Counted from the stretch's first letter, positions 54,852 to 57,514 are shown. The stretch is 64,000 bases of DNA from Candidatus Thermosaccharophagus tengchongensis (GCA_032161105.1 JAVHTD010000009.1); one strand, 5' to 3'. Translations and numbers: made by a program. Notes: a model not told the origin generated them from the letters alone.

Positions 54852-55883
54852 ATGAAGGTGAAAGGGTCTCTCCAGTTTGACTTTTCGGCGGGCAAGCTGC
54901 ACGCACAGCTTCTTGAAGCGCTGATTGGCAAGCTGCCGCTTGATGACGAGCGCGTTGTTGTCGGTCCGAGGATTGGTGAGGATGCAGCAGTGATTGATAT
55001 GGGCGATAGGTATCTTGTGGCAAAGACGGACCCGATCACATTCACCGCAGAGGAAATCGGTTGGTATGCCGTGAATGTGAACGCCAACGACATAGCTGTC
55101 ATGGGGGCAACTCCAAAGTGGTTTATGGCTACCGTGCTCCTGCCGGAGGGCAAATCCGATGAAGCGCTCGCCGAAAGCATATTCACGCAAATCGCAAATG
55201 CGTGCCGTGAGCTCAACATAACCGTCATCGGCGGTCACACCGAAGTCACATACGGTTTGGATAGACCGATACTCGTTGGGGCGATGTTGGGCGAGTGCGA
55301 TAGGGATAAGCTCGTGGTGAGTTCAAATGCGCAAATCGGTGATGCCATTATACTCACCAAAGGCATACCGATTGAGGGCACATCAATCATAGCTCGTGAG
55401 AAGGGTGATGAGCTTTTTAGGCGCGGCTACGAGGCTTCGTTTATTGAGCGGGCAAAGCGAATGCTTTATGAGCCGGGGATAAGCGTTGTAAAGGATGCGC
55501 TCATTGCAACCTCCTCTGGGAGAGTGCACGCCATGCACGACCCAACCGAGGGAGGATTGGCAATGGGGCTGTATGAGCTTTCATGGGCGTCTGGGGTGAG
55601 CATTGAGGTTGATGGGGAAGCCATCAAGATTGTTGAGGAGGGTGCAAGGCTGTGTGCTGAATTTGGTTTGAACCCGCTTGGGACAATCGCATCAGGCGCG
55701 TTGCTCATTGTTGCCCATCCGGATGATGCCGATGGCATCGTCAAAGCGTTAAATGCCTCAGGGATAAGCGCAGCCGTTATTGGGCGCGTGACATCGGTTG
55801 GGAATGAAGTCACTTTGAGGCATGGAAATGAACGCCTCACCATGCCACTGTTTGTGAAGGACGAAATAGCAAAGCTGTTTTAG
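54852..55883 (+). CDS. AIR-synthase (PurM/HypE/ThiL superfamily) related protein
   Basis: GKL, GEDAA, TDPIT, NDIA, GGHTE, MHDPTEGG. Confidence 0.85.
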   Translation: MKVKGSLQFDFSAGKLHAQLLEALIGKLPLDDERVVVGPRIGEDAAVIDMGDRYLVAKTDPITFTAEEIGWYAVNVNANDIAVMGATPKWFMATVLLPEGKSDEALAESIFTQIANACRELNITVIGGHTEVTYGLDRPILVGAMLGECDRDKLVVSSNAQIGDAIILTKGIPIEGTSIIAREKGDELFRRGYEASFIERAKRMLYEPGISVVKDALIATSSGRVHAMHDPTEGGLAMGLYELSWASGVSIEVDGEAIKIVEEGARLCAEFGLNPLGTIASGALLIVAHPDDADGIVKALNASGISAAVIGRVTSVGNEVTLRHGNERLTMPLFVKDEIAKLF

Positions 55884-56003
55884 CCGATTGTGGGATTGGC
55901 GCCATGTCGGCGAGGCGCCCTCACCGAAGCGGAGTCTTAAAAGAAAAAGGGGCATCCAATGAATGACTGATGCCGCCGATACTACAAACTGCGATAAGCA
56001 AGG

Positions 56004-56459
56004 GTGAGCACCATGTGGTCTCAAGACGATGGGCATTCAGCAATTCAGCACAAGGTCATTGACCGATATAGCGATGGAGATTTAGAGGTTGCCCTTGTAG
56101 AGCGCCAAATGGTAGGTGGGGCAGTTGACTACATCCTTCATGTAGAGCCAAAGACCTTCACGACTTCAGGCATTCAATGGACGCACTTCCTTGAGTGGTT
56201 AGGATTTCGTTACTTCAATAATTGCCCCCATGTTTTAAGTCATTGCTGCCTTTGGAGGAAATGGGACAGCAATACAACCGATGCAGAGAAAATCGCCCGA
56301 ACTTTGAAGGAAGCATACCAGCGAGTGAAAGAAGGGGATAAATTGCTTTCGGAAACGCCCTTGAAACTTCCAGAAAGCAATTTGGGGTGGCTTTACTTTC
56401 TCGCCCCTGAGGACATGAAACGACACGAACCTTTGATGCGATGGTTGGCGGAGTTGTGA
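56004..56459 (+). CDS. Hypothetical His/Cys-motif protein with antitoxin-like C-terminal tail
   Basis: Paralogue of 56865..57260; ends MKRHEPLMRWLAEL 4 nt before doc. Confidence 0.7.
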   Translation: MSTMWSQDDGHSAIQHKVIDRYSDGDLEVALVERQMVGGAVDYILHVEPKTFTTSGIQWTHFLEWLGFRYFNNCPHVLSHCCLWRKWDSNTTDAEKIARTLKEAYQRVKEGDKLLSETPLKLPESNLGWLYFLAPEDMKRHEPLMRWLAEL

Positions 56460-56463
56460 GGGA

Positions 56464-56862
56464 GTGTCCATCAAATACCTTACGGCTGAGGAGATAGAGA
56501 GCCTTCACGAGCAAATCATGCTTCGTTTTGGAGGCGTTATAGGCGTGCTCAACCGAACCCTGTTGGAATCTGCAGCGGGGAGACCAAAAATGGCTATTGG
56601 AGAGCAGGAACTTTATCCGACACTCGAAGAAAAAGCGGCGGCTTTAATGCACTCGCTCATTGCAAACCATCCTTTTGTAGATGGCAACAAACGGACAGCG
56701 TTTCTCGCCACTCAGGAATTCTTGCGGCTAAATAACCATCAAATTGTTGCAACAAACGAAGAATTGTTGGAGTTTACCTTAGCCATTGCTGAGGGGCGGC
56801 TTGAGTTTCACGAAATCGTTGATTGGCTGTGCTCTCATATTCAACCGACAAGGAGGAGATGA
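56464..56862 (+). CDS. doc: Death-on-curing (Fic/Doc) family toxin
   Basis: HPFVDGNKRTA motif, 'LLESA..RP', 'KAAAL..SL'; 132 aa. Confidence 0.92.
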   Translation: MSIKYLTAEEIESLHEQIMLRFGGVIGVLNRTLLESAAGRPKMAIGEQELYPTLEEKAAALMHSLIANHPFVDGNKRTAFLATQEFLRLNNHQIVATNEELLEFTLAIAEGRLEFHEIVDWLCSHIQPTRRR

Positions 56863-56864
56863 GA

Positions 56865-57260
56865 ATGTGGGATGGTCACACGGCAATAGAGCACAAAATA
56901 GCAAAAGACCCTATAAGCCATGGAGGTTTCACTTTCTGCCTCACCTTCGCAACACTGGCAGATGGACGCAAGTCTTTCGTTATCCATATCGCTTCCAATG
57001 AATCGTTGTCACCCGATGCGAAAAGATGGATGGAAAAGATGGGAATGGTTGAACACTCAAGTTGCCCTTATCTGGGACAGCGACCTTGCTTTTGGAAAGG
57101 GATAGAAGTTTCGGGTCTGACAGATGACCCATATGCCTATCGCCAACAAGTGCACGCTATCCATCACGCCTTTGATCAACTTTGCCAAAGGTTCCCTGAA
57201 GCGCTTGGGAAACTTCAAGAGGCTTCCCAGATTTTGGCTGAAATCGGTTTAGGGTTGTGA
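56865..57260 (+). CDS. Hypothetical His/Cys-motif protein (paralogue of 56004..56459)
   Basis: AGGAGGAG RBS at 56851-58, ATG 56865 (alternative ATG 56859 overlaps the doc stop). Confidence 0.7.
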   Translation: MWDGHTAIEHKIAKDPISHGGFTFCLTFATLADGRKSFVIHIASNESLSPDAKRWMEKMGMVEHSSCPYLGQRPCFWKGIEVSGLTDDPYAYRQQVHAIHHAFDQLCQRFPEALGKLQEASQILAEIGLGL

Positions 57261-57269
57261 GCGGAAAGG

Positions 57270-57514
57270 GTGAGATGCATAGACATCCTCAAGTTCATCG
57301 GACAGCGATTGCCCGAGGCGCGGGAATTTTGGGTTTGAAGCAGGAGGAAGCAACAAGGCGATTGGGCATAACGCGTGGATATCTTTCGCAACTTGGGACT
57401 GGCAAGCGACGCATCCCGATGAGGCTATTGGCGAAATGCGCTGAACTTTACGCTTCAGGATGCGCGTTTGAGCGATTGGGAAAAGGTGAAGTCATGTGTA
57501 TGAGCATCCAATAG
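57270..57514 (+). pseudogene. Frameshifted XRE-family HTH regulator
   Basis: One frame reads ...FIGQRLPEAREF and another LGLKQEEATRRLGITRGYLSQLGTGKRRIP; adding one T to TTTT at 57327-30 joins them. Confidence 0.65.

Follow-up and report, generated by a model that had tools for sequence, protein, structure and literature searches.

The A-doc-C triad of Candidatus Thermosaccharophagus tengchongensis (GCA_032161105.1 JAVHTD010000009.1) consists of a Doc-family toxin gene that is enclosed by two genes coding for paralogous proteins of a His/Cys domain. It was found in a window of 64,000 nucleotides (nt), meaning the whole stretch of DNA that was analyzed, and all coordinates refer to this window. 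By sequence, A and C are the two halves of a tandem module that related proteins carry in one polypeptide, with the effector gene doc placed between the halves. The reading that we consider probable, with considerable room for doubt, is that A-doc-C is a mobile toxin module in which an A:C heterodimer would mimic the tandem protein and control Doc.

An earlier note, made from the DNA alone, had described the triad as three tightly packed open reading frames (ORFs). These are real genes at the following coordinates:

56004..56459, plus strand: ORF A, 151 amino acids (aa), with a GTG start and an in-frame ATG at 56013.
56464..56862, plus strand: doc, 132 aa, an intact toxin gene of the Doc/Fic family.
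56865..57260, plus strand: ORF C, 131 aa, a His/Cys domain of the repeat-2 type.

The gap from the stop codon of A to doc measures 4 nt and that from doc to C 2 nt, spacings that suggest translational coupling of the three genes. A purine-rich stretch precedes the start of doc as well as that of C. For C, the ATG overlapping the doc stop codon (56859) that the earlier note had taken as the start does exist; however, since all six C-family proteins begin with MWDGH, 56865 is the likelier start. The block is more AT-rich than its surroundings, as had been judged by eye, with a windowed GC content of 0.46-0.50 over 56000-57400 compared with 0.52-0.555 in the flanks.

The product of doc is placed clearly in the Doc subfamily of Fic proteins by its profile matches. 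It matches the Pfam family Fic (PF02661) with an E value of 1.1e-19 and 71.5 bits (cut-off 24), and TIGR01550 DOC_P1 with 69.1 bits (cut-off 38.65; E 3.7e-19). The nearest solved chains are PDB 9vzc (E 6.1e-17) and Doc of phage P1 (3k33, E 1.4e-10). The motif HPFVDGNKR (residues 69-77) is invariant across seven doc orthologues, and its counterpart in the alignment with P1 Doc is HIFNDANKR. It has the Doc form of the catalytic motif, HxFxD(A/G)NKR, in which a lysine replaces the second glycine. By family knowledge, the protein is presumably an EF-Tu kinase that stops translation. Matches to the PADLOC candidate defence models PDC-S23 (5.1e-17), PDC-M59B, and PDC-S05 were found in addition. Doc toxins are known with Phd-type antidotes. 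Herein, the Pfam and NCBIfam scans and the ORF map bear out the earlier statement that a Phd/YefM- or AbrB-type antitoxin is absent from the triad: A and C are without a Pfam or NCBIfam family at E values up to 1, and no further ORF fits between the three genes.

The flanking genes A and C are confirmed as true paralogues by sequence comparison. BLASTP aligns the two proteins over 137 columns with 23% identity and an E value of 6e-11. Their Smith-Waterman score of 104 is reached by 0 of 2000 shuffles (mean 27.2, standard deviation 4.3, maximum 52), and the similarity that had first been noticed by eye is significant by this measure. Profiles of the A and C families align with each other over 112 columns (hhalign, probability 98.2%, E 3.4e-14). 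The domain had been called unrecognized, and it indeed has no match in Pfam, NCBIfam, PADLOC, PHROGs, or the PDB. A sequence-profile search of the PDB with the C family gave nothing below E 0.2, the ESM Atlas contained no usable match, and a word-based search, which is weak evidence, returned no C relatives of greater length (fused forms).

The identity of the two genes becomes apparent from their relatives. An exhaustive, profile-free search with A as the query (full HMMER scan of 1.84 billion representatives) yielded 55 relatives at E ≤1e-3, 31 of which match twice. Repeat hidden Markov models (HMMs) were built from the first and the second repeats of these 31 tandem proteins. A scores 90.2 bits with the repeat-1 HMM versus 42.1 with the repeat-2 HMM, and C scores 66.0 bits with the repeat-2 HMM versus 28.9 with the repeat-1 HMM. 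In a quick maximum-likelihood tree of 74 repeats with few columns, a branch supported by 96 in the Shimodaira-Hasegawa-like approximate likelihood ratio test parts 31 first repeats, five A proteins, and the relative P0013 from 31 second repeats, five C proteins, and P0045. The duplication is therefore older than both the split and the fused forms; and since A and C group with repeats 1 and 2, respectively, they represent the split form of the tandem module. A is thus the counterpart of repeat 1 and C that of repeat 2, with doc as the effector gene between the halves. The A:C pair proposed by the earlier note is most likely on these grounds, as 31 of the 55 relatives carry both repeat types in one polypeptide. 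P0013 and P0045 are single-repeat relatives, as is P0064 (341 aa), which consists of one repeat followed by a C-terminal region of ~230 aa without a Pfam or PHROGs match.

The tandem module is mostly attached to effector domains. TIR_2 was detected in 19 of the 31 aligned tandem proteins, following the tandem in all of them except one, where it precedes it; 18 of these matches exceed the Pfam cut-off. One protein carries CHAT, and another shows a weak match to PLDc_2 and has a C terminus that fits PADLOC PDC-S05 (7.6e-26). In PADLOC, the TIR parts find matches in PDC-S66, with E values down to 9.6e-27, and in ThsB models. For the tandem part itself, PADLOC 2.0 gave no family for A, C, or the tandem-only proteins. 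The domain thus keeps to toxic effectors, in the form of TIR, CHAT, and PLD-like domains. A pattern scan with the motif CPEFDF[ED]xC, which covers that subgroup only and uses one genome per species, gave 19 loci in Alphaproteobacteria, Anaerolineales, Dehalococcoidia, Thermodesulfobacteriota, Brocadiaceae, Holophagaceae, Eisenbacteria, Armatimonadota, Aquabacterium, and others. Among the 17 tandem loci examined, a TIR domain is fused in 11 central genes, and none of the neighbours is recurrent, an Eco57I-type methylase, an integrase, BrnA, a patatin, HNH, and AAA proteins being among them. One locus (L022, 5956-7296) has separate neighbouring ORFs, with a gap of 10 nt, for the tandem module (288 aa) and for a TIR protein (155 aa); this arrangement reflects either a frameshift or a further natural split. 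Viral contigs yielded a single match in a scan with the tandem family and none with the C family. This contig from a viral collection (L041, 4701-6047) encodes a 448-aa tandem-module protein with 50% identity to the query. Literature searches confined to open-access papers and bioRxiv gave no description of a Doc gene between paralogous regulators or of this tandem module with TIR, TY-Chap2 (see below) being their sole lead. The His/Cys tandem module is rare and undescribed.

Over 68 repeats, the columns with at least 80% conservation are solely two His and two Cys. In the numbering of A, these are H11 (67/68), H46 (68/68), C74 (68/68), and C82 (64/68). Each of the tandem repeats contains a C-x(4-12)-C pair (62/62). 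From the comparison of A with C, three His and two Cys had been proposed as shared; the two Cys stand, and the His are reduced to two that are family-wide, giving the signature His-His-Cys-Cys. It is a reasonable inference that this tetrad forms a putative metal site. The AlphaFold2 model of the tandem protein P0040 has a predicted local distance difference test (pLDDT) score of 90.8 and a predicted template modeling score of 0.87. It consists of two packed repeats of the β3-α-β2-α type that are connected by a disordered linker (residues 117-126), where the split would fall. The AlphaFold2 model of A reaches a pLDDT of 84.9 and divides into two parts:

A, residues ~10-118: core, with pLDDT above 90.
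A, residues ~120-151: conserved C-terminal tail of low confidence in the model (pLDDT 52-74), with a helix at residues 135-150.

The tail is conserved in eight of nine A-family proteins, and the tandem proteins are without it. In analogy to Phd, it is a candidate Doc-binding element. With Foldseek, neither the tandem model nor A had a match in the PDB at E ≤1e-3, and none was found among the BFVD viral models, so that the fold searches point to no firm relative. Repeat 2 may bear a weak resemblance to peptide-binding chaperones.

The triad recurs outside the window. In the same genus, A-doc-C is present in one of three other genomes (G001), where it lies between queG-like and phoU genes; the same query gave no A-doc-C match in the 57 more distant relatives searched. 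A scan of metagenomes with the C family yielded 15 loci, 14 of which cover the position of doc (L020 does not). In 13 of these 14, doc directly precedes C, be it intact or frameshifted. A lies upstream wherever the contig extends that far, whole in 11 loci and as a terminal fragment in L008; the contig of L018 ends before. The doc gene is intact in nine of the 15 loci, of which L011, L012, and L013 are apparent near-copies (identical coordinates and scores, not directly aligned), and its 5' end is unclear in L010. For four sets of diverged orthologues, the ratio of nonsynonymous to synonymous substitution rates is 0.11-0.19 for A, 0.10-0.19 for doc, and 0.09-0.21 for C, comparisons that involve the window being saturated at synonymous sites. 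These ratios indicate that A, doc, and C are all under purifying selection. The surroundings of the triads vary and hold genes typical of defence islands, namely for HNH and GIY-YIG proteins, a DUF433/DUF5615 pair, Cas6/RAMP, an HTH-M78 and PIN pair, and a DEAD/MZB/DUF559 helicase of 1684 aa; a ClpB-like AAA protein occurs there as well. The firm part of the interpretation is evolutionary: A and C are the two halves of a tandem module that is usually partnered by cell-killing effector domains, and A-doc-C forms a conserved mobile unit with doc included. In G001 (L006, 6270-6938) and in L021 (4919-5587), the A orthologue has 222 aa. It begins with an AF2212-like domain (PF01954, 1e-10), which is followed by an unassigned segment of ~40 aa and then by the His/Cys repeat. 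The AF2212-like family is annotated as antitoxin. Such an N-terminal domain on A fits an antitoxin-like role as well as a sensor role.

Because A and C are the halves of a module whose usual partners are cell-killing domains, and because this module moves with doc, we infer that A and C pair and regulate Doc. In the proposed mechanism, A and C would pair as a heterodimer in the manner of repeats 1 and 2 of a tandem protein. The pair would hold Doc inactive, perhaps via the conserved, conditionally folded C-terminal helix of A. A trigger sensed by the module would then lead to release or activation of Doc, comparable to the behaviour of abortive-infection sensors or of fused toxin-antitoxin proteins. 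The preferred reading of the module is that of a trigger-responsive sensor rather than that of an unusual antitoxin pair, and the module probably represents a novel type of switch for toxins of this sort. Its input as a sensor may be a phage protein or else a metal or redox state. A wider proposal is that the His-His-Cys-Cys tandem constitutes a new family of trigger-sensing switches for abortive infection, gating TIR, CHAT, or PLD-like domains in cis or Doc as split subunits; this is put forward tentatively, and we give it rather less than an even chance. The overall interpretation offered by the earlier note was supported in part: its paralogy, effector company, and foreign insertion all held, and its metal signature was modified to His-His-Cys-Cys.

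Several observations weigh against the mechanism just outlined. A simple scan found no sigma-70-like promoter for the triad. No operator-like inverted repeat was found upstream of A, and A and C are without a DNA-binding domain, so that the classical autoregulation of an antitoxin is not evident. As regards transcription, the RNA library X19 contained just a 152-nt and a 41-nt contig on the stretch. In addition, doc is frameshifted in three metagenome loci (L007, L008, and L017), either because the gene has truly decayed there or because of assembly errors. In metagenomes, the 1-nt deletion that disrupts doc is polymorphic, being present in run X7 and part of X2 and absent from X4. It looks like a real polymorphism, i.e., a circulating doc-null allele, the alternative being a homopolymer error. 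In L007, the deletion corresponds to a run of G at 56577 of the window. Finally, in L014 (860-960) doc is cleanly deleted and A is directly followed by C, so that the two flanking genes can be maintained in the absence of the toxin gene. The A gene of L014 carries an additional T close to its 3' end, and this contig is of low coverage.

A different division of labour would make A alone the antitoxin. Its helix would plug Doc like the C terminus of Phd, with C as a helper that stabilizes A loosely in the manner of the chaperone of toxin-antitoxin-chaperone (TAC) systems and without any external sensing. The location of A upstream of doc is the usual antitoxin position, the conserved tail with its low-confidence helix is typical of regions that fold on binding, the AF2212-like domain (1e-10) on the A protein of G001 belongs to a family annotated as antitoxin, and the chaperone likeness of repeat 2, weak as it is, would suit a helper. 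However, the single chains in which the same repeats are fused to TIR, CHAT, and PLD-like domains have no separate toxin gene in their vicinity, and such an architecture argues for a sensor or regulator rather than for a labile antidote. C is, moreover, as conserved as A, and neither protein contains a SecB-like or Phd-like Pfam family. We consider this division unlikely, yet the strongest of the competing explanations.

The link between doc and its flanking genes could also be accidental, doc being a selfish insertion in the linker of a former tandem gene and A and C having a function unrelated to Doc. In favour of this stand the disordered inter-repeat linker, which is tolerant of splitting, the A-C arrangement of L014, and the three broken doc genes. 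However, the triad is kept over a synonymous divergence of 0.66-2.8 with purifying selection on all three genes, the spacings are 2-4 nt, the three genes have been transferred together to no fewer than three different contexts, and the A family has gained a conserved tail that the tandem proteins lack; an accidental link is improbable. That A and C are chaperone-type adaptors, which would deliver Doc (or the fused TIR etc.) to a target or an export route without inhibiting it, is more improbable still.

The block with the triad interrupts housekeeping genes, as the earlier note had stated, and its foreign nature follows from the spacing in sister genomes, a break of homology, and an empty-site contig. 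The distance from the AIR-synthase-like gene to rsmA is 38, 41, and 350 base pairs (bp) in G001, G002, and G003, respectively, versus 1612 bp here. All three of these sister genomes have an empty site, as does one metagenome contig. In this contig, from the hot-spring metagenome run X4 (depth ~747), positions 55885 and 57474 are linked by 128 other letters in place of the block of 1588 bases. In the same run, the cassette occurs at lower depth in an L007-type context. In nature, strains that have the insertion exist alongside strains that do not. By these comparisons, the window copy of the triad is a recent insertion of ~1.5 kb. The features of the site are as follows:

55882..57481, no strand: inserted block between the AIR-synthase-like gene and rsmA; homology to G003 ends at 55881 and resumes at 57482.
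55948..56000, plus strand: 3' remnant of an HNH endonuclease gene, recognized by its match to L007, where the HNH ORF ends just before A.
57279..57452, plus strand: decayed 5' remnant of an HTH_3 + Peptidase_M78 (IrrE/ImmA-type) gene, which is the content of ORF D (57257-57514).

The segment 55948-57452 is 95.6% identical to the metagenome locus L007, in which the triad lies between an HNH gene (Pfam 3.8e-9) and an intact 384-aa HTH_3 + Peptidase_M78 gene. The HNH stub before A thus shows that the transferred fragment was cut from a larger island. An HNH gene precedes A in L007 and L014, and L015-L017 likewise have an HTH-M78 gene, with a PIN gene adjoining it, in the vicinity of the triad. 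ORF D was weighed as a possible fourth component or HTH antitoxin and was rejected. It shows a weak HTH_3 match, the start codon of the M78 gene reads ATA, 1-nt indels are present, and homology stops near 57452; the sequence from 57482 onward is native and lies upstream of rsmA. ORF D is a chimera of the decayed HTH-M78 remnant and this native sequence, and the interval of the system, which had been drawn to 57514, does not include it.

Compared with known systems, the triad shows partial likeness to several. With phd-doc of phage P1 it shares a Doc-family Fic toxin with an HxFx(D)(A/G)NKR-type motif and the organization as a small, tight, mobile operon with a gene directly upstream of the toxin gene. 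It differs in consisting of three genes instead of two, in lacking a Phd/YefM/AbrB antitoxin, and in that the flanking proteins are paralogous His/Cys repeats. TAC systems contain a SecB-like chaperone in addition to toxin and antitoxin. The triad likewise comprises three genes and has one partner of possibly chaperone-like fold; unlike in TAC systems, the two non-toxin genes are mutual paralogues that flank the toxin gene, and no SecB-like family was found in A or C with Pfam and NCBIfam. Sensor-TIR immune proteins of a single chain (PDC-S66, ThsB-like) resemble the tandem proteins in combining an N-terminal noncatalytic module with a C-terminal effector. They differ in that the tandem module has no PADLOC model and in that the effector in the window is Doc, encoded separately between the repeats. 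Class I type III secretion chaperones and YbjN, including the heterodimer SycN-YscB, are similar in their dimeric (here pseudo-dimeric) organization and in what may be a weak fold resemblance of repeat 2. TY-Chap2 of ARG-centred systems is reported to sit beside ADP-ribosylglycohydrolase genes (Iyer, Burroughs, Aravind and co-workers 2022, PMC9503650). The triads and tandem genes scanned differ from that neighbourhood in that no ADP-ribosylglycohydrolase was found among 34 triad neighbours (E up to 1e-3) or among 51 proteins encoded near tandem genes (E up to 1e-5).

Taken together, we rate A-doc-C as a toxin module, or a system resembling abortive infection, whose regulatory module is new and split, with a fair chance that it defines a new sensor family. 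The partner of Doc is in this case a paralogous pair that derives from a domain without a match in Pfam, NCBIfam, PADLOC, PHROGs, or the PDB. The module resembles a 'Rosetta stone' in that it would control effectors both in cis, when fused, and apparently in trans, when split. With both forms at hand, its function is testable with the small proteins of a thermophile-associated cassette. If A and C are merely an unusual antitoxin pair, the known ways of restraining Doc would still be widened; if they form a sensor, it would be a new input domain for bacterial immunity and toxin-antitoxin biology. Should the trigger-sensing switch be true, it would constitute a new defence family, thinly spread over at least 10 bacterial lineages, and A-doc-C would be the first Doc system under a split sensor rather than a labile antitoxin.
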